From Mustelus asterias (Eukaryota), in assembly GCF_964213995.1 (NCBI RefSeq), contig NC_135808.1:23064001-23128000 (forward strand): a stretch of DNA of 64,000 nt, in the 5' to 3' direction. The notes under the pieces were generated by a model, which saw only the letters and a program-made list of their open reading frames with translations, did not search any database and had not been told where the DNA came from. The translations under genes and the position numbers were made by a program. Positions within the stretch are counted from its first letter, which is position 1. Each line of letters begins with the position of its first letter. Of the stretch, positions 6,796-64,000 are shown in pieces.

Positions 6796-7373
6796 GTGTT
6801 TGTTGCTCTGATGAATTGTGCTGGTGTTTAGGGGTCTGATGGGTTTGAGCTCATCAAGCCTCCTTCTCCCCTCTTCCAAATTTTCAATGATGAGCTCACC
6901 TTAAATCCACGCTAACTTTCCTTGATTAATCTGTGCCTTTCTAAATGAAGGTTTATACTTCATCACATTGGAATTATTAATTCCAATAATTTTCCCACCA
7001 AGTAAGTTAAACTAACTGGTGTATAATTACTCAGATTGCCCCTTCATCCCTTTTCAATCCATGGTGTAATGCTGTCAGTCCTTTAATCTCCGTTCACTCT
7101 CCTGTGACCGGGAAGAATGATTCTGATTATCGGAGCCTCTGCAATTCCCTCCTTTGCTCCTTTTAACCTGGTGATTTATCTCCTCTCAAACTTGTAAAAT
7201 CCCTGAATACATCATCTCTTACAATGTTTATCTGATGCAGTAATTCACACATTTCCTCCTCAACTGCAATGTCAACATTGCTCCCTGTTTCCCAAACACA
7301 GTGGCAATGTATTTATTGTAAGAAGTTTAACAACACCAGGTTAAAGTCCAACAGGTTTATTTTGTAGCAAAAG

Positions 7374-7418
7374 CCATACGAGCTTTCGGAGCTCCAAGCC
7401 CCTTCTTCAGGTGAGTGG
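7374..7418 (-). ncRNA. Minimal type I hammerhead ribozyme motif in the PLE 3' region (inverted arm)
   Basis: Reverse complement reads CCACTCAC-CTGAAGA-AGGGGC TTGGA GCTCC-GAAA-GCTC-GTATGG. Confidence 0.65.
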
Positions 7419-10274: not shown

Positions 10275-10319
10275 CCACTCACCTGAAGAAGGGGCTTGGA
10301 GCTCTGAAAGCTTGTGTGG
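10275..10319 (+). ncRNA. Minimal type I hammerhead ribozyme motif in the PLE 3' region
   Basis: CCACTCAC-CTGAAGA-stem II (GGGGC/GCTCT)-GAAA-GCTT-GTGTGG; palindromic AAGCTT stem III typical of PLE minimal HHRs. Confidence 0.7.
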
Positions 10320-10684
10320 CTTTTGCTACCAAATAAACCTGTTGGACTTTCACCTGGTGTTGTTAAACTTCTTAATGTGTTTTACCCCAGTCCAACGCCG
10401 GCATCTCCACATAATGTATTTATTCACAACCTCGCCACATTCTCCACCCTCTCTCACAGGCTATCTTGTTGGTCTCCAAAAAGTTCTCCCCTTTCCTTAT
10501 CCTTTTCTCTTCATGTACTGATACAGCATGTTTGGAGGTTCTTTGATATTTTCTTGGCAGCATTTTTCATGCCCTCTCTTTACTTTTCTGATTTCCTTTT
10601 TAATTTCACCCTGACACTCTCTGTACTATTCCAGGTTTCTGCATTATTAGGCGTGAGGCGTCTGATGGACTTTGCTGTTGGTAT

Positions 10685-23131: not shown

Positions 23132-24304
23132 AAGATTCTGATAGTAGATTCTGAAAGCCATGATAGTATTAAATGGTGTAGCAGACTCGAGGGGCTGAAT
23201 AGTCTGCTCCTGCCCCTAATTCTTATGTCATTATGTTTTTATATTATCATCTCACATCTTATCAATTTGATTCTGAGATGTTGCAGTTCTCTTTATTATG
23301 GATGTCAAATCTACTGAGAAGTTTTGGACCCAGCTCATTGCCTTCAGTGTTTTTTCATGCAACGCAAAGGTGAGTGTATTGGGAGGGAGTTGGACTGAAA
23401 TGCAGGAGGATTATGCTTCGCGATACTACCTCCGAGCTATTAGTCCCGATATCTGAGGAAGGATGCTAATGCGAAAGAAGCATTTTAGAAAATGTATGAA
23501 CATGTACTGGAAGCATTAGACTATCCCCTATCCCGATGGACTGGTGGGTTTGAAACAAAATGATTGGCACAATACTGTTCCCTGCTTCTTTTAAAGTATT
23601 AGTGCTGATACAGTATGTGTAGATTTAAGTGATTCCAATAGGTGTTGGGTTGGACATGTGAAGGTATGGGGGCGGAGGATGCTGGGGGCCGAGGCCAGTT
23701 AATATTTCATTCCAAATTCCCGATGTTTTCCACGTTTAAAACTTGGTCAGTGCTCTCATTCCTCACATATTTTAACATAAGTGCATGTGGGATCATAGGA
23801 ACATCGGCACAGCAGTAGGCCATTCGGCCTGCTCCGCCATTCAATAAAACCGGACACGTCAATATATTTTACACGTTATGTCGGTATAGCGCGCAAGAAA
23901 CAATACTTTTCACTGCATACAGATATATGAGTCAAAATCAAATCAAACATACTAACCCCAAACCCTTCCGATATGTTAATGGGAAACATATTCAACTCTT
24001 CCATAAAAATACTCAATTTTCCTGCCCGACTGCAGAATGCGGCCATGACACTATGTCGTTTTGCAATTTTAATTCTGTTACGTTGTTTCCTCGCTCTGTC
24101 AGAGAGGAAATACCGGAACCCATAACACCTTCTTTCTTAACACTGATCCACGCCCAGTATTTTTTTCACATTTCGGTCTTTGCTGTCAGCTGGAACAACA
24201 CAGGCTACTTTGTACAAGCACATCGAGCAGGGCAGATTCTAATCTCGATATTTCACGCTCTTGGACTGTTAGTTGCAGCATTTCCAAACTCCATTCGCAA
24301 CAAT

Positions 24305-24878
24305 GGGCGGCAAGGCGGCACAGTGGTTAGCACTGCTGCGTCACGGTGGTTAGCACTGCTGCGTCACGGTGGTGAGCACTGCTGCGTCACGGTGGTTAGC
24401 ACTGCTGCGTCACGGTGGTTATCACTGCTGCGTCACGGTGGTGAGCACTGCTGCGTCACGGTGGTTAGCACTGCTGCGTCACAGTGGTGAGCACTGCTGC
24501 GTCACGGTGGTGAGCACTGCTGCGTCACGGTGGTGAGCACTGCTGCGTCACGGTGGTTAGCACTGCTGCGTCACGGTGGTTAGGCACTGCTGCGTCACGG
24601 TGCTAGGGACCCGGATTCAAAATCCCGTTTGGGTCACTGTCTGTGTGGGGACTGTACAATCTCCCCGAGCCGGCATCGGTTTCCTCCTGGCGCTCCGGTT
24701 TCCTCCCACAGTCCAACAATGTGCGGGTTAGGTGGATTGGTCATGCTAAATTGCTCCTTAGTGTCAGGGAAACTAGCTAGCTTAAGTGCATGGGTTTAAG
24801 GGAATAGGACCTGGGTAGGATTATGGTCGGTGCAGACTCGATGGGCCGAATGGCCTCCTTTATTATAGGGATTCTATG
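24305..24878 (+). mobile_element. HE1/V-SINE-like SINE with an internal tandem array
   Basis: Normal head, core and tail; 24319-24595 is 12 copies of a 23-bp unit CACGGTGGT[T/G]AGCACTGCTGCGT. Confidence 0.9.
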
Positions 24879-25559
24879 CAATGAACAATGCTTTTAAGCA
24901 TCCAATTGTATTGGGGGGGGGGGGGGGGGATGGGGGGTGGAGTTCACACAGCATTGCAAATGCAGATTTTGGGGGCCTTATATCGTCTTACCATGACTTC
25001 TGTGGACTTCGGTTGTGCAATTTGACTTGGATTCGTATCATTTCTTGCAATTGAGTACGTTCTTCTGCTAAAGTGTGAACCTTTGCCGCTGCCCATCTAA
25101 AATGGCAATTTGCTCCGACAGAGCATTTTTCTCGATGATATTGCTGGTTCAGCTATTACTTATCGATAATTTTGGTGGTTTCTGTTCAACATAGATTAAT
25201 TTGGCTTTAATACATCATGATTTCAACGACTGTCCAGCTCTCCCTTTTCCTGTGTCCATCATGTTTTACGTCTTACTTTATATCATCATCCTTAATTGTC
25301 TCATATTCTTATCATTTCAACTTGATTGTTATTCATTTGGATGTTCGGAAATCAGCTCATGTCTATCCTTATTGTTTGGATGTCACCTTCTCACTGGAAC
25401 ATATGTGAGTGACTTGATGAATTTAGATAACGTCTCATTCTAATGGTCACATTAGCGATGTCATGGATATCGTTTGTCAAATGATTGTGCAGAGCTGAGA
25501 CCCGTGCTTTGGTAAATTCACAAGGCGATTGCACTCGGTACTTGCTCCATACGCACCAA

Positions 25560-25770
25560 ATCATATTTCCACATTCAAAATGGCATCCCAATATTGGAGT
25601 GAATACAAGCCCAGTCAACCCAATCTCTCCTCTATCGACAGTCCTGCCATCCCAGCAATCAACCTGTCGACATTTCGCTGCACGCCCTCTGGTAAGTACG
25701 TCCTTTGTTAGATAAAGAGAACAAGTCCGCACGCAATGCTCCAGGTGTAGTCTCACCAATACCGTTGTAA
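25560..25770 (-). mobile_element. Old CR1 ORF2 fragment
   Basis: MVRLHLEHCVRTCSLYLTKD is a decayed LVRPHLEYC motif. Confidence 0.6.
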
Positions 25771-27560
25771 TGCTGCTTTTTTGTAAAGATGGGGCATGAA
25801 CTGCAGCTGTAAATATTCATGACATCTCCTCATCTTTAGGTGTCTCGAAGAAATTCTGGAGTTCGAAGTGTCGCAAAACTCCTGAAACTCCATCGTGATA
25901 TTGCGCTGTCAGGATCCCGTCCTCCCTGGAGTGGAAGTGGCGGCTTTGGGAGGTGCTGTTGATAAAAGCTGTCGGGAGTTGCTTGGAGATGCTTGGTGTT
26001 GGAGATGACGACTTTGCGAGGTGCTGTTGAAAGAAGCTGTTGCTTTGTGATGCTTAATGTGACAGAGCCCCAACTCGCCAATTGGACTCTGATTATCCAC
26101 AAGCATTTCCCCCAACCTTGCACCGTAACCTCACATCATTCAAGCCAGTGAGTTTCGGGCCAGTAACATAAATAACCCCAACCTTTCGAACAGGCAACAG
26201 TGAAGGAGTTCAACTGAATAATTGCTTTACTTTTGACGTTGATATCTCGTGATGACAAGGAGTATCAACCGTTTGCACAGGTATTTCAGTGTTTTGATTT
26301 CCACAATTTGATCTCAAATCCCGCACTCCATTCAATGGTGAAAAACTCTCTTGTAATGTCAACATTTCCTATTTAAAATTGGAACCATTCTCTATCACTG
26401 AGCCGACGGGTGACTCCCGATCCACAGCAATGTGGTTGATTCTTAGCTGTCTTCGGGGCAATGGGGATGGGCAATAAATGCTGACCAGCCAGTGATGCCC
26501 ATGTCCCACGAATGAATAAACAGAAAATGTGTACCTTATAGAATGCCTTTCGAAAATTAAAATACACCACCTCTACTGTTTCTCCCTTTCGAGCTATAAA
26601 GGCCTATATTACCCTTAACTACCCTATTTATCCGGATATATTATTAATAAACTTTAGTATTGTCCCTGATATTCCTCACGGTGCCACGCCCCCTTCCCTC
26701 CATAGAACTCTCATTGTTCAGCTCTTCCTTTGTGGATGTTTGCATCTTTCCCTCTCTCCCGGATCGTCCCAGTGCCATGCCCTCACATCAGTTTGATGGA
26801 ATTTGTCACTCCCTTTGATGACACCAATGGAAGTTTTTGTATCGTTGGTTTCATTGAGGGTCGGTGATGAATATTTCTATTGATGGTGCATAAAGCTTTG
26901 GCATATTGTAACTTGTGGACTTGTGAGTCGAAGTATTGCTAATCCATGCACAACATCGCTGTACATGTGCCTGTACCACATGGACTACTGTCCTTTAAAA
27001 AAGGCAGCTCACCAAAAACATTTAAAGGGCGAATTTTGGCTTAGCCAGCACACCCACATCCCATTAATGATTTTTTAAAATGATGCAGAATGATATTTAT
27101 TCAGTTGAAGGAGAAGTGGAGAGATGTTTTTAGAGCGAACGATGGGTATTGATGCATTGTCCTATTTGAAATAAAGTGAGCTACTGAATTGGAGTGTGTC
27201 TGAATACATGATGGCATGATTTGCCACAGCGTCAGCACCCTTTGGAAGAAATGAACACAGCACGTGCTGTTTGTGTGTACTACTAAAATGCCCACTAAAA
27301 TGCAACTTGATCAGTTTCTGAGACAACTTTGGCAGATGCCCAGATTTGATAGTTAGTTAAGACTGCAGTGTGCTTTCTTTGCATTCTCATTAATGCATGT
27401 GCAATAACTGATCATTTGGTAACGATATCTCTTCACTACACTTGCTGTTTGGCGTACAGGATATCATGCCTTGCAGTTTCACCAGGCTAACACGGTTGAT
27501 GAAAAGATTGGGATCAATATAATATTTATTCATACAAAGCATGTTGTTCTGCTCACAGAT

Positions 27561-28459
27561 CTATTGTTTATTAATGAAACGGATAATTGATGTAAATGGA
27601 TATTTCAGCGCGCTCTTGAACTGATCCCTGAACTTAGACTGAGTCACTCCATATATAAATGCATTTGTGCAGCAACTTAAATCCACCAGCATAACTCCAA
27701 CTTGATCAAATATATATAAAGAATCGTTATAATTTGCGGGATTAGTTCCTGAAATTATATATAAGAAATTTGTAACATATAAAAACCATAAGAGTATGAA
27801 GCTCCCAGATATGGTGAAGAGTAAAATCATAGACTTCCTTCTGCCCTCCATCTCTGGGTCACTGCGATTATCGCATTTGCTCTGACCCCTCAGTCCCTTC
27901 CGTACTCGACTGGTCACTAAAATATATCTGACTGTAAGAGTGTTGAGCAACAGAATTGAAACATATGGGATCAATGGAGTTGAAACCGTTTCAAACCATT
28001 CAAATGCCACCCATCCTGGGTCAGTATAATAACTTGGTTTTTCATTACAGAACCAGGGGACATTGTCGATTATCTCTCTAGGTTCAAACCTAAAGTAGAT
28101 CGGAATGGCTTTTAAACACATCAGGGTGCAAGTGGTTGATAGTACTGCAGCTGCAGTTTGTTCGGTGCAGTATTTCGTTTTCAGCTTCTGACAACAAATG
28201 GCCACAAATCGATCGAAGGAGAAAGTGACGGTGAACCAGACAGAACAGTTCACAGTTGCATAAAGCAGTACAAAGATAATAGTACATGCAGGGGTGATGT
28301 TCAGTAAAGATCCTGGGAAAAAGTAGCTGATCCGATATAATATGACCGCAGTGATAATCACCAGAAGATCTGCCGCTGCCATGGCCACGAGGTACCGAGT
28401 AGTACAGCTGGAGAGACCGCAGTTTCTCCGGGACAGGATCACGATTGCCATTAAATTAA
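27561..28459 (-). CDS. Class A orphan GPCR, GPR139/GPR142-like (cartilaginous-fish-type paralogue), exon 2
   Basis: Uninterrupted 7TM ORF: NLMAIVIL, YLVAMAAADLL, SVWFTVTFSFDRFVAICC, LLNTLTVRYI, RRKSMILLFTISGSFILLW, CCTNAFIYGVTQSKFR; acceptor ccatacag at 28460; joined to exon 1 gives 320 aa. Confidence 0.93.
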
Positions 28460-29049
28460 CTGTATGGGAGGGATAAAAATGTAGACTGTAAGTTACTGAT
28501 CCAGCATTCTCCATATCGGCTGGGTTGGTGTGGGGCAACAGCTGATTGTTTGAAATAGATCTTTATTTACCCAAAGACAATTTAAACTTGCAAATATCTG
28601 TGCTTAACAGAATTAGGATGGTGGGCTCTGGGAGGGGTTATCATAATTTCTTTTATTTTTTAATAAACTTCAAATAATCTATTGCACATACGTCACAGAC
28701 ACAGTTCTCAGACTTTGGGCAATGTGAAAGGTGAAAGAGGGATGAGCACAACTTCAAGGCTAAGGCAAGTGTCTTCATCACACTGGTTATGTGCAAGGGG
28801 AAAGTAGTAGTTTTCTTGCTTCACCTCCACCTTGCACGCAATACACAAACTCCACCACCGCCTCAACCCCATCCAAACAGAAAGGAACCCGAAGCAGCCA
28901 TCAGTCCCTGCATGTCCAGACAACCACGCCCAGTAACGAAGTTAGAACGGAACAGAACTGCTCCTGAAGAGTGCGATGAAGCCTCGCCCGCCCTACCTCC
29001 GCCGAATGTGGAGAGAGCCCTGACAACTGGGCTACTCTGAGAACAAGAA

Positions 29050-29330
29050 ACTTGTCAGGTATTACAGAAGCATGAAACGAAGTTTATAATATCACGGTAA
29101 TTGGGGAAAGTCTAACTTGTGTTGCCTGCCCGATGCCAAAGTTCAAGACATCTGCTGAAGTCTGGAGAGGAAATTGCAGTGGGATCCACTTACTATGGTC
29201 CAGTATGGATCAGCGACATAGACAGGATAAATAAAGACGTTGTGCAGAGGCAAAACGGGATCCTCGGCAGCAGATTATGAAGTAAAACCTGAACGGTCAT
29301 AACGTCGAGCCACGTGCAAATTAGCATAGG
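29050..29330 (+). mobile_element. Old CR1 ORF1 (esterase) remnant
   Basis: tgttgcctgcccgatgccaaagttcaagacatc corresponds to a decayed CCLPGARVKDI motif. Confidence 0.5.
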
Positions 29331-29454
29331 AAAATCGTATCTGAGGGCTGAAGGCATGGAGCAAACGGTGTGGGCGAACATAGTTCCGGTTCGGGGGCAT
29401 TGGCAGAATAATTGCGGAAAGTTGCACCTTAACCATTGAAACGGTTAACACCTG

Positions 29455-29611
29455 ACTTAGAAACAGATCATTCGGACCATCGAGCCTGCACCGACAATAA
29501 TCCTACCCAGGCCTTATCCCCGGAACACCAAGTATTTATCCTGCTAATCTCGCTGACACAAAGGGGCAATTAAGAATGGCCAATTAAGCTAATCCACACA
29601 AATTCGGACTA
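29455..29611 (-). mobile_element. HE1-like SINE 3' fragment, diverged
   Basis: Similar to the 3' half of the SINE. Confidence 0.6.
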
Positions 29612-29978
29612 TGCTGAGGCTAGTTTTCTTGTGAGGAGTGGAAAGTAGAGAGGTTGTACTTGACCTGGTATTCTGCGATTAAATGGAAATAATTAATCAT
29701 CCAATAGTGCAGGAGCCCCGAGGTAGCAGCGACTAAATTACAATTGAATTTTGCACTCCGTTTCAGGGGTGGAGAAGTGGGTCTGCGAATTTCAACTGAT
29801 CAATGGGATCAAGCCATCGAATCTGGGAAAAGATCGCCAATAAATGAACCGAGACAAGGCAAAAAAGGAAGGTATTTTTAGAGGAACGGAAGAACAATCT
29901 ATGACAGGAAGGGAGAGAGAGCATAAATCCCACAGTGAACCAATGGATGACACCAGTGTTTATGAAAATAATAAGATG

Positions 29979-30277
29979 ATCATAGATTCCCTACAGTGCA
30001 GAAGAAGGTTATTTGGCCGATCGAATCTGTAACGAGCACAATTCTACCCAGCGCCTATCCCGGTAGCCGCACACATCTACCCTGCTAAGTGGAAATTCAG
30101 CATGGCCAATGAACGTGACCTGCACATCTTTGGACCGTGTGGAAACCGGAGCACCCGGAGGAAACCCACATAGACACAGTGAGAACGTACAGACTCCACG
30201 TAGACGCTGGTCCAAGCTGGGAATCGAAACTGGCGCTGTGAGGCAACAGTGCTAACCATTGTGCCACCATGCCACCC
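29979..30277 (-). mobile_element. HE1/V-SINE-like SINE
   Basis: Head, core (ggaaaccggagcacccggaggaaaccca) and tail. Confidence 0.85.
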
Positions 30278-30349
30278 GGAAAAATGATAAAACAAAATGT
30301 TCTGTCTCTGAATGCACATAACATTCAGAGCGAAGCAGATGAAACTGGA

Positions 30350-31850
30350 AATAAACAAGTTATATTTTAGAGCTTTTATGCTGACATGGCTGCAGGAAAT
30401 GTAGTTTGACCTCAATATTATTGGAGTACAAAATGTTTCTGAAGTACAAGAGCGAGGAACAGGTGGAAGGGTGGTTCGTTTAGTTAATAATGGTGTTAGA
30501 ACAACAGTGTGGGATGGCTGAAGTTCAGAGAACATGGATGTTGAAACGGTTAGGATGAAGAATAGAAATGATAACTGCAGGAAGCAAGCTGTGGGATTTG
30601 TGTACAGGCCCCCTAATTGTTATCACTGGTAGGCGATAGCATAACGGCAGAAATAATTAAAGCTAATCAGAAAGGGGTGTTCTTAATCTAAATATAGATT
30701 GGAAATGTCAGAGGGACAGTGAATGTTTTTGGGATAGTTCCTTATAACAGCATGTTGTGCAGCCAACGAGAGAGCAGCCTGTACTTGACCTGGTATTCTG
30801 CGATTAAATGGAAATAATTAATAATCTAACAGTGAAGGAACCCCTAAGTAGCAGCGACTAAATTACAATTGAACATTGCACTCCGTTTGAGGGGTGGAGA
30901 AGTGGATCTGCGACTTAAAAAAATGATAAGTGCAATTGTGAGAGCATGAGAACTGAACTGGCTAAATTGATGTGAGAAATTAGTTGAATGGATCGGCCAA
31001 TAGAGATACAGTGAAAAACATTTAAGGGGATATTACAAAATGCGCAGAACAGATACATACCAACGAGTAAGAAAAACACGAAGGGGCGGACTCACCATCT
31101 ATGGTTAAAGACGGAGATTAAATATACTATCAAACTAAAAGAAAACGCATATAATTGTACAAATAAAGATGACTGATTAGAAGATAGGAGTGAACATAAG
31201 GATCAGCAAAGAATGACCAAATGCCGAGAAGGAGGAAAATTTAGCATAAGAGGGAAAGTTAGCCACATAGCAAATGGTTTACAAGTATTAAAAAAGAAAG
31301 CTTATAACATGATGAACATTGTTTCAATATAATGTGTGTCTGGAGAAATAAAAATGGGAAACAAGGATTTGACACATTTACTGAACAAATATGTTCCATC
31401 GGTTTGCACAAAAGGGGGACACATGTAACATACCAGAAGAAATTATAGTTCAGAAAATAGAAGGGAGGAAGTTAAGAAAGTTAAAGCCACCAGAGAGGTG
31501 GTGCTGCGAAAATTGTTGCAGAGCCAGGCTGATAAGTGCCTGTGTCCTGATGGACTTCATTCTCGGGGCTTAAATAGATGTCTCGTGAGATAATTGATGC
31601 ATTGATTTTAGATTCGAAGATTGCAAATGTAATGAATAAATGAAATTTATTCAAAAAGCAAGGGAGAAAGTAAGCTTGAAACGACAGGCCTCTTCACTGA
31701 AAATCTGCCAGAAGGAAAGACGTTAACGCGAGCCATTTGGATAAGTTTAACGCAGTCAGGCAGATTCAACAAGGTCCTGTGCAAAAAAAAGTTTAACTAG
31801 CTTGTTGGAGTACTTTGTTGAAATAAAAGGTGCAGTGGATAAATGAGAAA
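30350..31850 (+). mobile_element. Old CR1 ORF2 (APE to RT) remnant
   Basis: Decayed acatggctgcagg, gtgtacaggccccctaat, cttgacctggta and cctgatggacttcat motifs in the expected order. Confidence 0.7.
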
Positions 31851-31871
31851 CAGTGTTTGCATTTACAAAAT

Positions 31872-32096
31872 GTGCGGCACGGTAGCACAGTGATTTGCAC
31901 TGCTGCCTCACAGTGCTGGGGACCCAGGTTCAATTCTGGCCACGGGTCACTGTCTGTGTGGAGTTCTCACTTTCTTCTCATGTCTGCGTGGGTTTCCTCC
32001 GGATGCTTCGTTTCTCCCACACTCCAAAGATGTGCATGTTCGGGGGATTGACCATGCTCAATTGACCCTAGTGTCAGGGGGATTAGCAGGGTAAAT
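31872..32096 (+). mobile_element. HE1/V-SINE-like SINE, 3'-truncated
   Basis: tRNA head and core. Confidence 0.8.
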
Positions 32097-33002
32097 GATG
32101 TAAGAAGTCATAGATTATGTCTATCCAGAAATAAGGAAGGAGCTGATTTTTTTTTAGCCTCAGAGAAGATTTAATGCAGAAACTGAATTTATAAGGTCGA
32201 CATACTGAACAGATTTTCAGTTCTTAGGGGCTCCAGAATTAGGGAACATCAATATAAGATCCTCACTGATAAATTCAACAAGATATTCAGGAGAACTGCC
32301 TCAACTCAAATAATTATGTGGCACTCACTGCAAATTGGAACAGTTCATCCATGTAGCTCAGTTTACAAAAAATAAATATTTATATTTGTGGCAAAGACTG
32401 GAAGGTTACTGTGCCCAGGTTAAATGGATGAGATGAGAGAAGGTTCGGCTGGAGCATAACAACTATCAGAAATCAATTGTCTTAAATGGGCTGTTTCGGT
32501 GCTGCAAATTCAATCGTAGAAATAACTTGAGTCATCACAGCCGCAGAATTACAGAATGGTTATGGCGCAGAAGGAGTCCATTCGGCTCATCTTGTGTGCA
32601 CCAGCTCTCTAAATGAGTAGTATGACTGAGTACCATTCCCCTACATTTTCTCCATACTCTTTAACATTGTGTCCATTCAGATAATCATCTAATACCCTCT
32701 CGAGTGCTTCGATTGAAGCTACCTTCACCATAATTCAGGCAGTGCATTTCAGACATGCACACTAGTTTTTTGAAAGCCTCATGTTGGTATTTACTGTGGT
32801 GGAACTGATCCCTTTCTAAATGAAAACCAATATCTATGATCTTCAGTTTCATGTTTGTTTCTTTTCAAGGACTGAGCTAAGAGCAGGGATCAGTGTAGGT
32901 TAAATACATAGAAATTCTGAATCATAGATAATTACTGGTCTGTCAAACATTAGTCGGATACAGAAGTGAGCAATGCAAGAACTACATCCAATACTAAGAT
33001 TG

Positions 33003-34392
33003 AAGCAAAATACTGCAGATGCTGAAACCTGAAACAAAATCAGAAAAGGCTGCAAAATCTCAGCAGGTCTGACAGCATCTGTGGCAAGATAATAGAGCCA
33101 ACGTTTCGAGTTTGGATGAACCTTCTCCAGAGCTCAAGGCAAACAAAATAGAACTAGATTTATGCTGTAAGGGTAGGTGACGGGGTGGGGGTTGCTCTCT
33201 AATTGAAGCGGACAGAATAGACAAAAATATATGCAAAAGGTAATAAAAGCTGAGAATGGTGCTAACATCATCCACTAGTAGATCGGGATGTGGCAGCTTT
33301 CACAATGGTTCATGTGCACCTCCTTCAACCTGATCTATTGTATTTGCTGGACACAATGCGGTCCACTCTACATTAGAGAGACCAACTGCAGGCAGTGTGG
33401 CCGCATTATAGAGAACATTTTATCGTCCACAAGCAGGAGCCAGGCCTTCCTCTCACTTGCCATTTTAACACCTCATCCTTCTCTCATGTGCACATGTCCG
33501 TCCTTTGCCTGTGGCAATGTTTGTGTGAAGCCCTATGCAAATTGGAGGAACAGCACCTCATCTTCCGAGGAGGCACTTTACAGCCTTCCAGACTGAAGAT
33601 AGAGTTGAATAAATTCAGAGAATGAACTCTTTGCTCCACCTCCACTCCATTTATTTCATTTTATTTCATATACTTTTCTCTTATGAATCCATTTTTATTA
33701 CTTAATTTTTTTTATAATCAGTTTGATTTTTAATTTAATCCATCGTTTCATTTGTGTACTCTCTAATCTTCCTTTCCGTCTCCACCTACCCCTTCCCCCC
33801 AAACACACACACACAAACGCACACATCCCACTCAGGTCATCTGCCACATACCTCAGCTTGTCCTTTGACATTTTACACCTGTGTTCTCTTTTTTTAGGTA
33901 TTCAGATCGCTTAGTGGATGTTGCTAGCACGATTCTCAGCATTTATCAAAGCTCACATTCCCTTTTGTCCTTTGTCCATGGAATCCCTATCAGTTCTGTG
34001 CCTCTCTCTCCCCTCACCATTGCACTATACATCTCGTCCTATTTTCTATGTCTTCAGCTCTGAAGGAACGTTATCATTCAGCTCTATTCTGTCTCAACAG
34101 ATGCTGTAAGAAGTCTCACAACACCAGGTTAAAGTCCAACAGGTGTATTTGGTAGCAAATACCATAAGCTTTATATATACGATAAATACGAAAGCTTACG
34201 GTATTTGCTACCAAATAAACCTGTTGGACTTTAACCTGGTCGAAAGCTTATGGTATTTGCTACCAAATAAACCTGTTGGACTTTAACCTGGTGTTGTGAG
34301 CCTTCTTACTGTGTTCACCCCAGTCCAACGCCGGCATCTCCACATCAACAGATGCTGTCAGACTTGTTGAGATTTCCAGCATTTGTGTTTTT
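33003..34392 (+). mobile_element. Penelope-like element, family B (inverted 5' arm + GIY-YIG remnant + 3' end)
   Basis: 33003-33135 is an inverted copy of the 3' end at ~34050-34392; FMCTSFNLIYCI..QCGPLYIRET and CKLEEQHLIFR..TLQP are GIY-YIG remnants; decayed HHR (CTGGAGA...GAAACGTT) on the minus strand near 33095-33135. Confidence 0.8.
34108..34345 (+). mobile_element. PLE family A fold-back (subfamily variant) nested in PLE family B
   Basis: Inverted arm plus tandem 3' units plus tail ...GGCATCTCCACAT; TSD CAACAGATGCTGT at 34095-34107 and 34346-34358. Confidence 0.88.
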
Positions 34393-34544
34393 TTTACGAC
34401 AGTCCTTCATTCAGCACTTGTGATAGGCGGATCGTTAAAAACAGTGACGCATTCTCAGGACTATGTTGGATGAAGTTGATTAATCAGCAGCAAAATAAAT
34501 ATTAAGGGTTTACTGGAAATATTGCAAATACTAGTATTGGTGAC

Positions 34545-34822
34545 CGACCATACCAACCCCATGCCGGTAACCCTTTGCGTTTATCGTGGCTGATCCATCG
34601 AACCTATACATCTTGGGAAACAAAGGCCAATTTAGCATGGCCAATTCACCTAACCTGCACATCTCTGGACTGTGGGAGGAAACCAGAGCACCGAGAGGAC
34701 ACCCACGCCAACGTGGGTGAATGTGCAAACTCCACACGGACAGACATCAAAGGTCGGAATTGAAAGTGGGTCCCTTGCGCTGTGAGGCAGCAATGCTAAT
34801 CATTGTGCCACCGTGCCGCCCA
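34545..34822 (-). mobile_element. HE1/V-SINE-like SINE
   Basis: Head ...gtgccaccgtgccgccc and core. Confidence 0.85.
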
Positions 34823-55003: not shown

Positions 55004-55596
55004 TGAAGTGAGGAAAAACATACAGATGAGTACACTTTAAAAATGACTGCCTGGCACATAAAGCGTTAACTGGGAGAGAGACCATAAAAGTGACACTGAC
55101 TCTTAGCCCAGCAACTACTTGTAAATTAAAACATGCATGAATTAGATACTGCAGGAAGCCAGTGGAAATAGGGACAGTCCCAGGACAAAAGGGTCTGTTA
55201 AAGAGATTAGCCACAAATGGGAATGGGAATAAGTAAATGCAGGAAAGCCAATTATTTTATGAATGAGCCGAAACTAAACCACTGATGGTCACTGACGTAG
55301 GAAATGTATCCATTCATAGAACAATGCGATGTTAACATGCTTATGTCTGTATCTGTCTGTATTTGTCTATAACGATGTGTTAACAATCGATCACCGACTT
55401 GATTACAACGATGTGATAATGGCTAAATGTCTGGTCCATCTATTGTGTAAATGGTATAAAGATGGACCGCTCCTGTTGTATCATTGAGAGAAGGTTTGCT
55501 GCTTGTTAGTGCCTTGTCTCCACGAAGCTTCGTTAAAATAATACTGTATTCTTGAAACCTTCATGCCTGACTCAGTGGTACATTTCCCACAAAAAT

Positions 55597-55615
55597 TGAC
55601 TTAGTCGGCTAGGAT
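55597..55615 (+). promoter_or_regulatory. ERV-2 primer-binding site, tRNA-Ser-like
   Basis: TGACTTAGTCGGCTAGGAT versus TGGCGTAGTCGGCAGGAT expected for tRNA-Ser; directly after the 5' LTR. Confidence 0.65.
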
Positions 55616-56303
55616 CCTATTACTGGTGAGATCGATTGGCCACGATCGGAGCCGGGGTAGAGATCACTGAATCTGTGAGAGTCAGACAAGGTCAAGAATA
55701 CAGTTTGCAAGGGGTTAAACTTAACGGGTTAAACTTAAGGGATATTTCTGGCAATAATTATTATTGTATGTGATATCGTGATATGTACTAACTGCTGATA
55801 GTGATAAGTAACTGTTGCTTGTGCTGACCGACAAGAGGACAAGGTAGTGCCTGTCTCAAAACCCTGCCTTAGACTGGCTGTTAAGAGGAGGAACCTCCCA
55901 CGCAAAGGCCAGGAGATTGAAGTGGGAAAAGAGACACCAAGGGCAGTTAAGATTGTGAAGCACAAGTGGCAGAGGTCGGTTAACATCAAACTCTGCAGTG
56001 GTGAACAAATGCAGAGTTGCTATCTGATTGCATGAAAGTTTGAAAAGTTGGGAACTGTACTGTCAATGTTGTGAAAAGCGGGACAGAAAAGGAGCTTCAT
56101 CAACTCTGACCTAAACTGGATCCGGTGGAGAAGCACATTGCCGAGGTGGTAATAGTGGAAGCCGTGAATATAACTTGAAACCCTATAATGGTAGTGAAAC
56201 ACGGTGCTAGAGTAGTATAGTGGCCGGGGATAGTGAAGTCCCTACGGGAGAGAGCACACTTTACGAGGGAATAATCGTGGCCGGGGTTAGTGAAGTCTGT
56301 GAA

Positions 56304-57643
56304 ATGGCAGATAATGAAGTTAAAAGGGGACCTGCAGGATCCTTCATTGAAATTTACATGACAAACAGGAAAGAGTTAATAAAGAGAATGCAAAAGGACG
56401 GCTGGGATACTTCTCAGACCTTAGAACAGCAGAGAAAGTGGATAGATAAAGAAAAGAGAAAGAAGACAAAGAAGATAGGAGTAATATTATCACATCAATT
56501 AGCTGGTCTAATTGAGCAAGTAGTCACCTCGACTAAGAAGTGGAGTGAAGATAAAGAAAGGATTAGAGAATTAGAATCCCGAGTGAGGGAACAGGAGAAG
56601 CAAAATCAGGTTTTAGAAGAAAAGCAATGGAGAGGGGAAACTGTTCCTCTAACTCCTTATGAGTCCACACAGCAGGGACCAACCACTCCTTCAGAGGAGT
56701 GAGAAGCGCTAGAACACAACTTAGCGCCAGTAACCCGAGGGGGAACAAATGCACGACCAAAGGCAACTTATCAACCCTTCACCCCAGGTGAGAGACAGCA
56801 GATAATGGCTTCCCTGGGTAAATTACAACCCAGAAGCGCAAGTACTAAATTCTGGGAATAATTAGACACAATCTGGATAGGACACCAATTACACCTGAGA
56901 GACATATACCAGCTGGACAGGGCAGCCTGTCCAGCGGATAAGTGGAGGCATGTAGCTGGTGGACCAGCAGCTCCTCCAGCACAGCATTATAATGGGGGAC
57001 GGTGGACACATGCAGTCTCCCTAGCATCAGAGATAGATGCCCAACAGGCACCCTTCACCCAGTTCAAAGCAGAGATTCAGAGGGTATTAGGGAATGCTTC
57101 CACTAACTGGAGAAGACTTACCACAACAAAACAGTTAAAAGGGGAAGGAGCTTCTGAATACGGGGAACGATTGTTACAGGTATATCAAGAGTGCTCAGGA
57201 CAAGGGAACCCAGGTCGAGGGGATTGAGCATTCATCCAGGCTTTTAAGGATGGACTCTCTAGCGCTCACCAGGTCATCCTAAAAATGGGAGTGATAATGT
57301 CCCAAGATTACGATGAATTGGTAGCGTGGGCCAGCGGAGTACCAGGAGAAGAAAAATCCCAGGCAAGAACAAGGCCAGAAAGAGTAGCAGCTTACAGTAA
57401 TGGGAATGGAACAAAGTCTAAACTGACTTGACTCAATTGTGGTCGGCAAGGACACTTTGCGAGGGATTGCGGGACTCCACGGAAAGGGAACAGGTTTTGA
57501 ACAGTGGGAAACATTGCAGCCACTGTAATAAATGTGGACACACAGAAGCAGTGTGTTGGAATAAGCATGGAAAACCCTCGACCCGATCCATGACCACAGC
57601 AGAACCAGAGGAACCACAGGACCTCCGGGGTCAGCAAGATTGA
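56304..57643 (+). pseudogene. gag: ERV-2 gag, frameshifted, two CCHC knuckles
   Basis: (C>stop)LNCGRQGHFARDC and CSHCNKCGHTEAVC; MHR-like KQLKGEGASEYGERL; position after the PBS. Confidence 0.8.
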
Positions 57644-59520
57644 CGGTCTGCAGCCCCCATTCACAAGGGTAAGAAGGAGGGAAGAATTTACGTGTCAGCA
57701 CTAGTAGGGGGCAGACAATGTGAGATGCTAGTGGACAAAGCAGCGTCCATATCTGTCACCGACCTACCCTTCCCCACTACAAATAAAATGATTTCCCTGA
57801 CTGGGATAGGAGGGAACAAAACACCCGCCTACCTGAGCGAGACCACGTTAGTAGAGATAAATAATCTGTATATACCAATGAGGTTTTGTGTGTGCAAAAA
57901 TAACGAGGGTACAATAATGGGAAATGATCTGATGAAAGAATATGAGATTCTGCTCGACTGTTGAAAAGGAGAATTAATCTGGCCAAGACAGGACGGTCGG
58001 AAAACTAGAACAGGGAAACTTACAAGTCACCTCGAAACTATTAAGGTAGCCACAGTCACCACCAGAAATTGGGAATTAGAAACAGGAGGGTTCGGAGCCA
58101 TCTGTGCCCCTGTCCCCGGAATATGGTCGAAAACGAAGTTAGATACTGGTTTGACTAAAACAGACCCAATAAAGGTACCGGGACCAGAGCATAAGCCACA
58201 CCGACAATACCCAATCAAACCCGAGGCAGAGAAAGCTGTAGTGGAGATAGTTAAAGGGTTAGTGGAAAGGGGGATTCTGAGAGAAACCACAAGCACCACT
58301 AACTCCCCAACATGGCCAGTGAGCAAGTCTGACGGAAGCTATAGGCTCACGATAGATTACACCGGACTCAATAAAGTCACGTCCAAATTGCACCCCATCG
58401 TAGCAAGCCCTTCGACAATCCTGAATGGACTGAATGGAGCATAAAATATTCACAGTATTGGACATAGCCAACGGATTCTGGTCCTTACCATTTGTTCCTG
58501 AATCCCAAGACAAATTTGCCTTTCCAGTGGGTGAAAAGCAGTACACTTGGACTCGTTTACCACAGGGATTCCACAACAGCCCAGCTATATTCCATAGAGC
58601 AATGAGTGACATCCTGAACAGAGTAGAACTGCCAGAGGGTAGTATGGTCCTACAATATGTAGATGATATCGTGATAGCTTCAGAGTCCAAGTCAGGACAT
58701 CAAGAAGCCTTACATTTAGTACTGAATGAATTAAAAGCTGCAGGGTTAAAGGTGAGCCCCAAAATGGCACAAATCGGGAAAACACAGGTCCTATACCGAG
58801 GACACGTTATATCCCAAGGACTTAAAGAAATGCCAACAGACTGACAGAAGGCAGTACAACAAATGCCGCGACCCGTCACCATAAGAGGGGTCAGAAAGGT
58901 GCAAGGACTATTCAACTATAGCCAGAGTTTCAACCCAGGGTTCACAAAATTAGCAGAACCCATACAGAGACTCGTCAGAGGGGGAAAACCAGCTTAAGAT
59001 CCCGTAGAATGGGGACTCGAGCAGGAAGAGGCTTATCATAGAATCATAGAATTATAGAAACCCGACAGTGCAGAAGGAGGCCATTCGGCCCATCGAGTCT
59101 GCACCGACCACAATCCCACCCAGGCCCTACCCCCACATATTTAGCCTCTAATCCCGCTAACCTACGCATCTCAGGACTCTAAGGGGCAATTTTTAACCTG
59201 GCCAATCAACCTAACCCGCACATCTTTGGACTGTGGGAGGAAACCGGAGCACCCGGAGGAAACCCACGCAGACACGAGGAGAATGTGCAAACTCCACACA
59301 GACAGTGACCCGAGCCGGGAATCGAACCTGGGACCCTGGAGCTGTGAAGCAGCAGTGCTAACCACTGTGCTACCGTGCCGCCCCCTATACTGAACTAAAA
59401 ACTGACATCAGCCCCTGGACGAGGATTACCCAATTCTAATAAGGACTTCCATATCCATTGTAGAAATGAGAGAGGGTTCTATTCCGCCGTGGTAACACAA
59501 GATCATGGCGACAGAAATAG
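57644..59520 (+). pseudogene. pol: ERV-2 pro-RT and start of connection/RNase H region, decayed
   Basis: Protease MLVDKAASIS...IMGNDLM; RT QYPI, NSPTWPV, YRLTIDYTGLN, LDIANGFWSLP, WTRLPQGFHNSPAIF, LQYVDD. Confidence 0.92.
59036..59383 (-). mobile_element. HE1/V-SINE-like SINE inserted in ERV-2 pol
   Basis: Full head, core and tail, close to the 4239 copy. Confidence 0.92.
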
Positions 59521-59775
59521 ATGATGTGGAGATGCCGGCGTTGGACTGGGGTAAACACAGTAAGAAGTTTAACAACACCAGGTTAAAGTCCAACAGGTTT
59601 ATTTGGTAGCAAAAGCCACACAAGCTTTCGGAGCTCCAAGCCCCTTCTTCAGATGAGTGGGACTTCTGAATTCCCACTAACCTGAAGAAGGGGCTTGGAG
59701 GTCCGAAAGCTTGTGTGGCTTTTGCTACCAAATAAACCTGTTGGACTTTAACCTGGTGTTGTTAAACTTCTTACT
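59521..59775 (-). mobile_element. PLE family A fold-back with two opposed hammerhead motifs; no TSD
   Basis: Tail ATGATGTGGAGATGCCGGCG..., then ~105-bp inverted arms centred near 59667. Confidence 0.9.
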
Positions 59776-59792
59776 GTATTTGTGATCCACAG

Positions 59793-60046
59793 GCATCCAT
59801 GTCTTCCAGATGATGACTGGCTGCAACCTGAGGGATGATGGGACTACGAGTGCATTCAACCAGTTTGGGTGGGATGGACAGGATGTTCTCAGCTTCGACA
59901 AGGATCACATGGTGTGGGTGACCCCAGTGCTCTGGGGAGATGTCATCAAAAACTATCTTGATAGGGACACTGCCAACAATGAGCGACTCAAACAATTCCT
60001 GGAGGTGGACTATATTGAGTAACTGAGGTAATTCCTCAAGTTCGGG
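59793..60046 (+). pseudogene. MHC class I alpha-2 domain exon, pseudogenised and 3'-truncated, embedded in ERV-2
   Basis: Acceptor gatccacag, then (G)IHVFQMMTGCNLRDDGTTSAFNQFGWDGQDVLSFDKDHMVWVTPVLWGDVIKNYLDRDTANNERLKQFLEVDYIE*LR*FLKFG, matching the class I alpha-2 pattern (H..Q..GC, GWDG.D..SFD, W, LE..C.EWL..L..G); second Cys is lost and there are two stops. Confidence 0.9.
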
Positions 60047-60156
60047 ACATATGAAGTTATAATTAGTGGAGACACCTGTGCCTGTATAGACATAAGAGGG
60101 AAAGGTGTCTGGAAACACTGGACACAACTAAAATTACACAAGGGAACAAATAAGTA
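60047..60156 (+). pseudogene. ERV-2 integrase C-terminal tip
   Basis: (G)TYEVIISGDTCACIDIRGKGVWKHWTQLK resembles the GPY.V...W.H...K integrase tail. Confidence 0.65.
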
Positions 60157-60399
60157 ATTAAATTGATGAACTAACAGAACTGATTTCCTCAACACAGGCA
60201 AAGACTGCAAACAAGAACGACTGGTGCGCGCGGGTTGATAGATAATATAACTTGTAAAGATTATATGAATTATCGTGTTAGGTTTGATATTTGATCGTTG
60301 TGAATATGTATTTAATCGCGTATGTAACTGTACTACTTTGCATTGCCGCGACTGTAAATTTAACTGGATTGGAGGATAACTTGTTTTACAAAGCTCACA

Positions 60400-61787
60400 T
60401 AAATTAAGACGGGAATCGAACTGTATGTTACCCGTTAGCACAATTGGTAGAAGCCCTATTTGTAGCCACCCCTGGGTGGACCCCTCATGACTTATGTACT
60501 GTAGATACATCAGATACACCCTGCAAGGGACAAATTGGCAAATATAAAAGAGGTATACAGGGGAGACGTGTGGGACTTGTAAATCCCACAGATCCTGTGT
60601 TCAGGGGGTTCCAACAGGTGGGAGGAATAGCTTGTTCAGATACTGCAAGCTATCCGCTTTGTTTTATGGGGCAGGGAGGGGATGTGCCTATGCCTTGGTC
60701 CCAAAGAATTATTCCTGCGTACAGATGCAGTGTGTCCGTCAACATTGTCAGATTAATAAGGGACAGTTTACTTGCACTTGTGATGAACAGAAATGTCTCA
60801 ATATAACTGCGGACAATGCAATGGAACTCACGTAATCTCAGCCAAATGGACATACCCATTTGATACTTACCAGGTGGTGGGGTCAAACGGGGAGTCAAGT
60901 AAACCGAACAATTGGCAATATGAACAAACTCATAATCAAGACACTAAATGTTACCGGGCTAAGAAGGGATATGTGTTCCTCTTCAATGGTACTTACATGA
61001 CAGAAACACCAAACCTCCCAAACCATTTTGCAGTCGGAACAATAGGACCACTGACTGTTCCATGCCCTCAGAAGGGGCATATTCGGAGGAGAATAGTAAC
61101 TCGGGCTATCAGCAAAAATTCTGCGCTGACTGGGAAGCCCCGGGCACAATGGGATCCTCACTGGGATATGGGTTCCTTGGAGCCTTATCCCTGCGGAGGG
61201 GCGGGGGGTGGGCGGGGTGGGGGGGGGGTGGTGGGGGAGGGCAGCAGGAGTGATTAGTGCAAAGAATAGGAATCATATTGTTTGTGGACTAACAGTCCTG
61301 GGAAACAGCACTTCAAAAGCACTGGAGGCTGTTAACCAAGAAATGGCTGAACTGAGATTATATGCACAGCAGACACAATATGCAGTGGACTATCAGTTAG
61401 CACAACAAGGGGGAGTGTGTACAATTATAGGCAATAAATGCATAACCCATGTCACGGACGAGTCCTATAACATTACACAGGTCATCAATAGCAACAGAAA
61501 AACAACTTGATAGCTTCAGACAGGGACCCAAGAAAAGATGTAACTGGCTGGAATGGTTAGTAGGGGGGTTCTGGGAGTCTTACCTATGACATGGATTGGT
61601 CATACTCGTTTCAATTGTAATTGTCTGTTGTCTGACTGTTGGATGCTTTAAAATCTGTTTTAAAATAATGTTGGCTAGAATTGTGCCAGGAGCCAGTGTA
61701 TACATCGAAGAAGAAAACCCGATGAAGATCCCCGAAGACATCAGAAGAAATGAAGAAGGAAAGAAGAACAAAGAATTATACATGTAA
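60400..61787 (+). pseudogene. env: ERV-2 env, frameshifted
   Basis: Cys-rich SU; RRRIVTR cleavage site; heptad IVCGLTVLGNSTSKALEAVNQEMAELR; YAVDYQLAQQGGVCTIIGNKC; TM anchor LVILVSIVIVCCLTVGCF; start position approximate. Confidence 0.88.
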
Positions 61788-62574
61788 AAATTGCTGGTCT
61801 AGGGATTAGTGAAACTCATAATCCGACCAAAAGTGGGGACTGAAGTGGGAAAAATATACAGATGGGTACACATAAAATGGCTGTCTGGCACATAAACAGT
61901 CACCTCGGAAAGAGACATTAAACAGGCACTGACGTTCAGTACAGACAACCACCTGAGATTAAAGGACAGACAGCTATTCAAAGTTCAAGATGCAGGAATC
62001 AAATCCTGCAGGAAGCCAGCCAAGGCTTGAGGCACTCTTTCGGATAAGGACAATAGGGTTGGATAACGAAATTAGCTACAGGTGGGATTGGAATACCTAA
62101 CTGCAGGAAAGCCAATTACTGTAAATTACGATATGAATAGATTGAAACTAAAACCACTGATGGCCACTGACAAAGCAAATGTATCCATTCATAGAACAAT
62201 GTGATGTTAACATGTTGATGTCTGTATCTGTCCGTATTTGTCTACAGCAATGTGTTAACAATCGATCACCTACTTGATTACAACGATGTGATAATGGCTA
62301 GATGTCCGGTCCAGCCATTGTGTAAAGGGTATAAAGATGGACTACTCCTATAGTCTCATTGAGAGAAGGTTTGTTGCTTGTTAGTGCCTTTTCTTCACGA
62401 AGCTTCGTTAAAATAAAACTGTATTCTTGAAACCTTCAAGCCTCACTCAGTGGTACACTTCCCACAACAGTGACCAAGATGAAGATCGTTGTAGAAACAC
62501 GTCTGCTTCATTAATATTCTTTAGGGTAGGAATACAGCCATCCTTACTTGGTCTGGTCCATATGTGCTTCATTT

Positions 62575-63085
62575 ATGGAGTAACATAGGAAGCATCCTTT
62601 CCGGATGTATCACAGCTTGGTCTGGCCCCTTCTCTGATCAAGACCACAATAAATTACAAAGAGTTGTGAATGAAGCCCAATCCATCAGGCAAATAATCCT
62701 CCCACCCATTGACTCCCTCCACGCTTCCCGCTGTCTCAGAAAAACATCAAGCATAATGAAGGACGCCACACACCCCGGATACACTCTCTTCCACCTTCTT
62801 CTGTCAGGAAAAAGACACTAAAGTCTGAGGTCACACACTAACAAATCAAGATAATCTTCTCTCTGCTGCCATCACACTTTTGAATGGACCTAAACAGATC
62901 ATATTAAATTGATCTTTCTCGACACCCCAGCTATGACTTAGCTTTATATTAAGGACCAACTCCTTTCCATCTCCCCTCTGAACTCCAGGAACGCTATGCT
63001 TTTTCTATATGTTACCTCAGAAACAATATTTTCCACTGTATACTAATACACGTGACAATAATAAATCAGGTCAAATCAAATCAAA
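62575..63085 (+). mobile_element. LINE 3' end (Rex1/Babar or L2-group-like)
   Basis: SILSGCITAW...KLQRVV..AQSI...LP.I..L...RC.RK...I.KD.THP...LF.LL.SGKR; (aaatc)n tail. Confidence 0.75.
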
Positions 63086-64000
63086 CACCGGAGAATAACT
63101 AGTCGCAGAATTCAATTAGTAACATGTCCAGATGCTCAGGGTCACACTTTAGGACAGGATGGGAATGTCCATCAAAGCGATCCCTCAAACAGTGTTTGCT
63201 GTTTCCCATATATAAGGGAACACATCATGAGCAGAGAATACAGCTGTTAGAGTGAAAGGAATACAAATAAGTTGTTTCTCCATGTGTATGCATTTTGCGA
63301 AGTAAGAAGGTGAAAGGTTAGGCGATGTATCTGTGTGTATGGATAGTGAGTTGTTTCGGGAACGAGACTGGTTAGAGGGTGTGACGGGAAGAGCGGACCA
63401 ATGTCTTGCAAGGGGCGAAGGCGGGAGAGGAGATGAAGATGAGTTTGGAGGTGGAATTGCGCTGGAACTGGAGGAAAAGCAAAGGGAGGTCTGTTGAATG
63501 TTCAAGGTGAGGAATGTGTCATCATCATCAAAGCTGAATCCGAGACTGAGAAACAGGGAAAAAAAGAAATGACGCATGTCCAGGAAGTCGGGTGGATGAA
63601 AACCTAATCAAGTGAACTGGGGAAATCAGTGCGTAGTAAAGATTGCTGAACAGCCATTCCCCTGAAATGGAGAGAGATAAGTCGGGAAGCAAATGAGATG
63701 AATCATCTGAAGATGGGCCGTGTGGCCTCCTGTGCATTGTAGACATTCTATAAAATACTACTCGGGTTAGATTAAGAGTGATTAAGAGCCATTCGGCCCA
63801 TCGTGTGGGGCATAAATACCGACTGAAACCAATTGGACGGACAATTTCAGAGCTGTAAATGCAATGTTGTTCTATGTTGCTGGATTTTTATTTAAGAAGT
63901 CAACAGTTGTTTCATAATATTGCAGACATTGAAATGACTTACTGATGAAGAAGGGCACTACTATTCATCTCAATATTAACACTATAATTGTATTAATGCT

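Follow-up and report, generated by a model that had tools for sequence, protein, structure and literature searches.

A dead MHC class I alpha-2 exon between two retroviral halves in the shark Mustelus asterias: the likely scar of a local DNA rearrangement

Introduction

In classic retroviral capture, a host exon comes to lie in viral sense, viral genes are replaced, and the 3' join is made by short homology. Capture of host genes by endogenous retroviruses (ERVs) has been described for KIT-ligand in CrocERV29 and for nectin3 in CrocERV31, and these captures, according to the available part of the report, are derived from mRNA, are present in 6-9 copies and have open reading frames (ORFs) under purifying selection (PMC4299795). 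Penelope-like elements (PLEs) are another kind of mobile sequence associated with host genes. In Adineta vaga, host genes are framed by PLE repeats and a target-site duplication (TSD) (PMC3846280, partial text), and a PLE protein studied in vitro cleaves and extends both strands and has an internal start of reverse transcription (PMC11167929, partial text). Retroelements can also bridge loci, as in the L1-mediated deletions and translocations of tumours (bioRxiv 10.1101/2024.08.27.596794, partial text). As for the host genes concerned here, multicopy clusters of non-classical MHC class I genes, UBA, have been described in sharks (PMC10751288, PMC12562908, both in partial text). Here we describe an MHC class I alpha-2 exon of the shark Mustelus asterias that is enclosed by retroviral sequence and adjoins a PLE. 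The window, i.e., the whole stretch of DNA that was analysed, is 64,000 nucleotides long.

Results

Architecture of the composite element

The composite element occupies 55004-62469 of the window. Its parts, together with a longer PLE in the same window, are as follows.

55004-55594, + strand: 5' LTR, U3 subtype A (38/42 diagnostic U3 sites A-like)
55602-59520, + strand: front half of provirus A with leader, gag, protease, RT and connection (Pfam RVP, RVT_1)
59521-59774, no strand assigned: short PLE as a fold-back, with a tailed end and an inverted arm
59775-59792, + strand: MHC class I intron end with AG acceptor, matching the intron ends of paralogs L005-L010
59793-60049, + strand: MHC class I alpha-2 exon, orphan, 3' end missing (Pfam MHC_I)
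60048-61835, + strand: back half of provirus B with integrase tail and env (Pfam Ebola-like_HR1-HR2 in env)
61841-62469, + strand: 3' LTR, U3 subtype B (46/49 diagnostic U3 sites B-like)
7318-10421: longer member of the PLE family, 3.1 kb, composed of two partial copies in inverted arrangement, including RT and endonuclease-like sequence

The preliminary description of this DNA placed the exon in viral sense between pol and the integrase tail, with env and the 3' LTR downstream, and the mapped features bear this out. It had ERV pol run to 59520, which is confirmed, and it considered most of RNase H and integrase to be missing. The viral span absent at the breakpoints indeed measures 1919 nt in the natural copy L133, where it contains RNase_H, Integrase_H2C2 and rve.

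The 5' LTR is inserted in a satellite-like repeat, its 5' flank ends CCAG, and its best matches are L124 (95.4%) and L113 (94.1%). The front half of provirus A is broken by stops and frameshifts, carries a SINE-like repeat inserted at about 59036-59385, and is 92-95% identical to dispersed family copies. The 3' flank of the 3' LTR begins GTGA and is a cluster-specific repeat unit, paralogs of which represent empty sites. The virus family is dispersed over many contigs at 90-94% identity. Its RT matched foamy-type and MLV-type RT structures about equally, and therefore no ERV class was assigned; the foamy label of some of the matched entries is partly our presumption. In a subfamily of copies (L113, L115, L121, L123, L124, L126, L129, L235, L238 and L241), similarity ends at or near window position 57348 in gag. 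These copies lack protease-RT, stand at different loci and include both LTR subtypes, and the subfamily may have spread as a defective element.

A dead class I exon

The exon matches Pfam MHC_I (PF00129, E=1.8e-11, 44.4 bits, cut-off 28.3) over the alpha-2 half, at profile positions 90-164, and among PDB entries the MHC class I chain 6lup_A matches it best (E=1.1e-22). Of the named proteins, those with the label Mustelus asterias class I come closest, followed by horn and nurse shark class I. The class I alpha-2 identity first proposed is borne out by the profile match, and further details of that proposal hold as well. About 17 nt of intron with an AG acceptor had been noticed; 14 nt are unambiguous intron, or 18 nt counting a TGT common to the PLE, and the acceptor AG is at 59791-59792. 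The exon had been called almost complete, and only its last ~17 nt and the donor site are absent. It had been called dead, and in comparison with paralogs its second Cys is replaced by Tyr and two stops, W76* and K79*, interrupt it. The fusion of KFG directly to the integrase tail was also confirmed: the exon frame continues into the integrase-tail frame as KFGTYEV, where other copies have NGPYEV.

No leader, alpha-1 or alpha-3 exon was found beside the fragment in the 104 kb searched, save those of a separate upstream gene. The ordered exons, Cys pair and open frame of a functional MHC class I gene are thus not found in the fragment, and the composite product is predicted to be without function. 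The insert does not resemble spliced mRNA, in that the intron end is kept, no alpha-1 exon is joined to it and its ORF has two stops. In a tree of 30 rows, all from genome G000 and one of them (L016) extracted out of register after an indel, the exon stands on a separate branch within a 100/100 clade that also contains L005-L010. It differs from its nearest paralogs at 24-25 of 249 nt, 14 of the sites being private. Our search found no donor identical to the exon, the nearest paralogs being ~10% away; L005 and L008, two genes of the clade, have a similarity of ~96% across most of their region.

Copies of the chimera are segmental duplicates

Forty candidates were scored per search. All 40 scored exon matches lie on G000:C8 at 21.68-24.75 Mb, which makes 40 alpha-2 matches within 3.1 Mb a lower bound, and only 4 are full length. 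The exon-integrase junction is spanned by 4 of the 40 scored matches, and the PLE-exon junction likewise by 4 matches only among the 40 candidates scored. The exon was found in none of the dispersed virus copies compared, 40 in one set and 10 in another. The four full-length chimeras, spaced by about 406, 418 and 1204 kb, have 40 kb of collinear flank in common at 97.9-99.9% identity, and are therefore segmental duplicates of one event. The duplicated block measures about 410 kb, and each of the four duplicates carries the seam.

The preliminary description had considered propagation as a transduced virus, for which several junction copies with different flanks would be expected. Independent insertions of this kind, the mark of a transducing ERV, were absent among the 40 candidates scored per search; both junctions occur only in the four segmental duplicates, which have one set of flanks. 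These copies bear equally on whether the junctions are real. An assembly artefact joining repeats might be suspected in a repeat-rich region whose junctions were examined in the assembled sequence. Nevertheless, the same junctions occur in four copies with substitutions of their own (the fourth is 98.6% identical) on a 140-Mb contig, and one falls at a natural PLE terminus and the other at a microhomology, which makes an artefact extremely improbable.

Two proviruses rather than one

Reverse transcription produces identical LTRs, and integration produces a TSD. Neither mark of a single integration, as expected of a transducing ERV, is found in the window element. Its 5' U3 is of subtype A (38/42 diagnostic sites) and its 3' U3 of subtype B (46/49), and its LTRs are 86.0% identical (79.2% with gaps), compared with 90.0-98.4% in the 18 other family copies in which both LTR ends were found. 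Among these 18 controls, a TSD of 4-5 bp is perfect in 14 and has one mismatch in 3, and one (L241) is a tandem provirus; the window element has CCAG against GTGA, with 4 mismatches in 5. The mismatched U3 regions and the missing TSD indicate that the element was assembled after integration. The element is thus not a single provirus as integrated, which the first description had supposed.

The same observations weigh on retroviral transduction, in which a virus would have taken up the exon, recombined with a helper genome while being reverse-transcribed, and then either integrated or propagated in defective form. A viral-sense exon that replaces viral genes and has a short-homology join to the 3' part recalls classic capture, and ERV gene capture is known in crocodilians (PMC4299795, partial text). 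We nonetheless consider transduction very improbable, given U3 regions that differ although reverse transcription makes them identical, the lack of a TSD, a dead ORF, the position of the exon ~68 kb from a near paralog within a cluster of ~0.1% of the genome, and the lack of dispersed copies among the 40 candidates scored per search. Retroviral capture, one of the origins first suggested, accordingly fails on LTRs, TSD, position and dispersal.

In five cluster paralogs (L175, L176, L177, L179 and L181) the site of the 3' LTR is empty, and what lies upstream of these five sites differs from the 5' flank in the window. The 3' LTR formerly had another upstream neighbour, which is now gone. An empty site of the 5' LTR was not found in a search that was flooded by satellite copies.

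Private (singleton) substitutions are at 74 of 3343 sites (2.21%) in the 5' half and at 19 of 1596 (1.19%) in the 3' half (P = 0.013, Fisher's exact test, a value that belongs to a second test run after a commonest-letter test), and none of 22 control copies is as uneven. The private excess reaches the PLE, with 3.0% in 58401-59035 (0/36 copies as high) and 0.9-1.3% beyond the exon, and may in part stem from a thinner sampling of close relatives for the 5' half. The first and cruder age test, against the commonest letter of each column, gave 3.93% vs 2.68% (z=1.36, 4/38 copies as uneven). Internal diagnostic sites are few: RT is B-like at 6/6 sites, which only 2 A copies cover, and the env end is A-like at 8/10. 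The shared-allele neighbours of the two halves give a rho of 0.12, within the control range of -0.42 to 0.68. The position of the A/B switch is less certain than the two-provirus origin.

Another family copy, L234 (G000:C64:937634-947187), combines a 5' LTR of type A with a 3' LTR of type B and is without a TSD. It keeps RT, the PLE hot-spot site and the integrase tail, and is an inter-provirus recombinant. As L234 is A/B without a host exon, LTR swaps evidently occur without a host exon.

The junctions and a PLE hot spot in pol

At the left junction, the tailed end of the PLE stands at a recurrent pol site and its inverted arm meets the class I intron. The PLE has the inverted terminal repeat and the optional tail of such elements, which usually also have a TSD of about 9-13 bp. 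Its description as a fold-back without TSD after pol proved accurate: the arms (59553-59666 and 59668-59781) are 96% complementary and no TSD accompanies the copy at 59521. The inverted arm ends at the family's usual CTTCTTAC terminus, and the MHC intron stands where a TSD is expected after it. The CTTCTTAC end followed by MHC intron would be the right-end appearance of a PLE inserted at that acceptor.

Fifty family copies were fetched, and among the 38 other proviruses that cover the pol position at window 59520, 6 carry a PLE there (L118, L122, L130, L143, L145 and L239). Four of these PLEs measure 130, 461, 510 and 983 nt, and both orientations occur; the insertions are likely independent because lengths and orientations vary. 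A TSD of 11-13 bp is present at four (L122, L130, L143 and L145). In L118, about 3.1 kb is missing left of the PLE, and in L239 the ~15 kb right of the PLE contain no viral sequence. The L118 deletion begins at the gag PLE site. Further PLE sites, with two copies each, are in env at ~61580 (L119, L124) and in leader/gag at ~56008 (L116, L240). In the longer PLE member, RVT_1 was matched at E=7.5e-06, under the curated cut-off of Pfam, and the motif VVYLI..YIGET, which we take to be of the GIY-YIG endonuclease type, was seen downstream by eye; Pfam gave no match to an endonuclease domain there. An Rfam scan of the PLE terminal repeat for a hammerhead ribozyme gave 15 matches, all sub-threshold and mostly to miRNA-hairpin models. 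In the literature searched, mostly outside subscription journals and without supplements, neither this locus nor the PLE hot spot was found described.

The left junction may have arisen by a single PLE integration primed on two distant loci, the ERV pol site and the MHC class I acceptor, a tentative reading toward which we are rather reserved. Such two-ended priming is made plausible by the in vitro data on PLE protein. The protein of that study is reportedly of a lizard type. At the right junction, the exon and the virus share 2 exact nt within an imperfect ~12-nt match.

PLE-mediated capture had been suggested at the outset, and a PLE does take part in the left junction. The donor then envisaged, a gene with a PLE just upstream of its alpha-2 exon, did not appear, and such capture, for which no living donor was found, gained no support: a PLE at the alpha-2 acceptor occurs in 0 of the 26 paralog loci compared, 10 further exon matches lying outside this set. 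Nor is the exon framed as a PLE-mobilised host gene would be, by PLE repeats on both sides and a TSD, as there is no PLE at the right end and no TSD.

These junctions could be read differently. The exon might have been copied into provirus B where it was cut at the PLE site, through a DNA template switch or through PLE read-through RNA from a neighbouring class I gene; synthesis would have returned to the same provirus 1.9 kb downstream, and homologous recombination would later have replaced its front half by that of provirus A. This removes the coincidence of two same-family proviruses. It agrees with the microhomology of the right join, the orientation of which suits priming from the integrase-tail side on a sense template, with the inter-provirus swaps that occur in the family (L234), and with the capacity of PLEs to mobilise intron-containing host DNA (PMC3846280, partial text). 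On the other hand, it takes one extra event, with a crossover in about the final 0.6 kb ahead of the PLE because the older-looking signal runs to 59520. It also requires a donor since lost, none being closer than 10%, and it sits poorly with the absence of a PLE at the acceptor in the 26 paralog loci and with an exon that has neither PLE repeats on both sides, nor a TSD, nor poly(A). We regard this course of events as unlikely.

Setting in the class I cluster and most probable origin

The locus lies in a ~3-Mb MHC class I cluster on G000:C8, in a genome of 3.68 Gb. At least 40 alpha-2 matches occur in 3.1 Mb, as in the multicopy class Ib cluster of shark UBA. The neighbouring upstream gene P0003 has 60% pairwise identity to nurse shark O19479, which we take to be UBA, and the cluster is probably UBA. 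Further marks of the UBA lineage would be flanking c4 and rxrb genes and grouping with named UBA sequences. P0003 seems to be without a 3' cytoplasmic exon that is found further on in the L005 region. The repeat unit at window 62484-64000 and beyond has ~19 repeats, which occur only in C8 21.95-24.88 Mb and are interleaved with class I genes. The 3'-flank unit is preceded, at 71-76 kb and in matching orientation, by genes of the clade to which the exon belongs, and the fragment itself is ~68 kb from one of its nearest paralogs. The former arrangement is consistent with an exon that stayed behind when the surrounding parts of its gene were lost. The surroundings are mosaic: the segment at window 23156-34776 is an inverted paralog (90-93%) of G000:C8 25.24-25.25 Mb. 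This segment begins where collinearity with the L005 gene region stops.

We consider it probable that two proviruses of the same family were joined across a local class I gene, through a PLE bridge on the left and a microhomology on the right, and that the seam was later duplicated. The first step would have been a PLE bridge between the pol site in provirus A and the acceptor end of the class I intron that precedes alpha-2. This bridge could have formed in a single integration with two priming sites, or through recombination of two separate PLE insertions, and what remained of provirus A would have been lost together with the beginning of the class I gene. A microhomology join would then have linked the exon end to the integrase tail of provirus B, with removal of the rest of the class I gene and the front of provirus B. 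Both steps may have belonged to one complex repair event. The last step is the duplication of the block of about 410 kb.

This origin by joining of two proviruses is supported by LTRs of different subtypes, the missing TSD, the lost neighbour of the 3' LTR and the orphan state of the exon. It is further supported by the private excess, which runs to the PLE and drops after the exon, and by two other hot-spot PLEs (L118, L239) that are also without one viral flank. Its main weakness is that two non-homologous joins led into same-family proviruses in collinear order, which is unlikely by chance. It is also weakened because internal sites fail to map the switch, because L234 shows a swap without an exon, and because the unrearranged locus was not found in C8 21.86-21.96, 22.06-22.13, 22.20-22.27 and 25.15-25.37 Mb. 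Ectopic rearrangement inside an MHC-I cluster, also among the origins first suggested, gains support from the four copies, all of which are in segmental duplicates there. The dead class I fragment is likely a single-origin scar of local DNA rearrangement, with an ordinary cause.

Discussion

The locus is a well-resolved scar that illustrates how class I genes die in a shark cluster. It also calls for caution, as an exon between two LTRs does not amount to viral capture unless LTRs, TSD and dispersed copies agree. The insertion of PLEs at the same nucleotides of one ERV family, again and again, is the more useful lead, since the hot spot provides countable natural events on PLE target choice and on the formation of inverted ends. 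If two-site priming is true, a site-preferring PLE would directly drive germline rearrangement and the death of genes in the MHC-I cluster of the shark.

The comparisons that follow are with known systems as the available parts of the reports describe them. Like gene-capturing ERVs and acutely transforming retroviruses, the shark element has host coding sequence in viral sense and has lost viral genes. It differs from gene-capturing ERVs in being dead and retaining an intron end, in lacking both matched LTRs and a TSD, and in having multiplied solely by segmental duplication. With the PLEs of Adineta vaga it has in common an intron-containing host sequence beside a PLE, an inverted repeat and an optional tail of ~31 bp, but in the shark a PLE adjoins a single side of the host sequence, and a TSD is lacking. 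The composite element is not a member of the gene-capturing ERVs, nor of the PLE-framed host genes. It resembles the L1-bridged rearrangements in that two loci are joined by a short retroelement piece that has an ordinary insertion end to either side and no common TSD, and differs from these tumour cases in being a germline PLE event in a shark, in which one integration and recombination between two insertions look alike. Its surroundings resemble the shark UBA clusters in being a multicopy class I cluster, of a lineage that is probably UBA, with P0003 compared pairwise to O19479.
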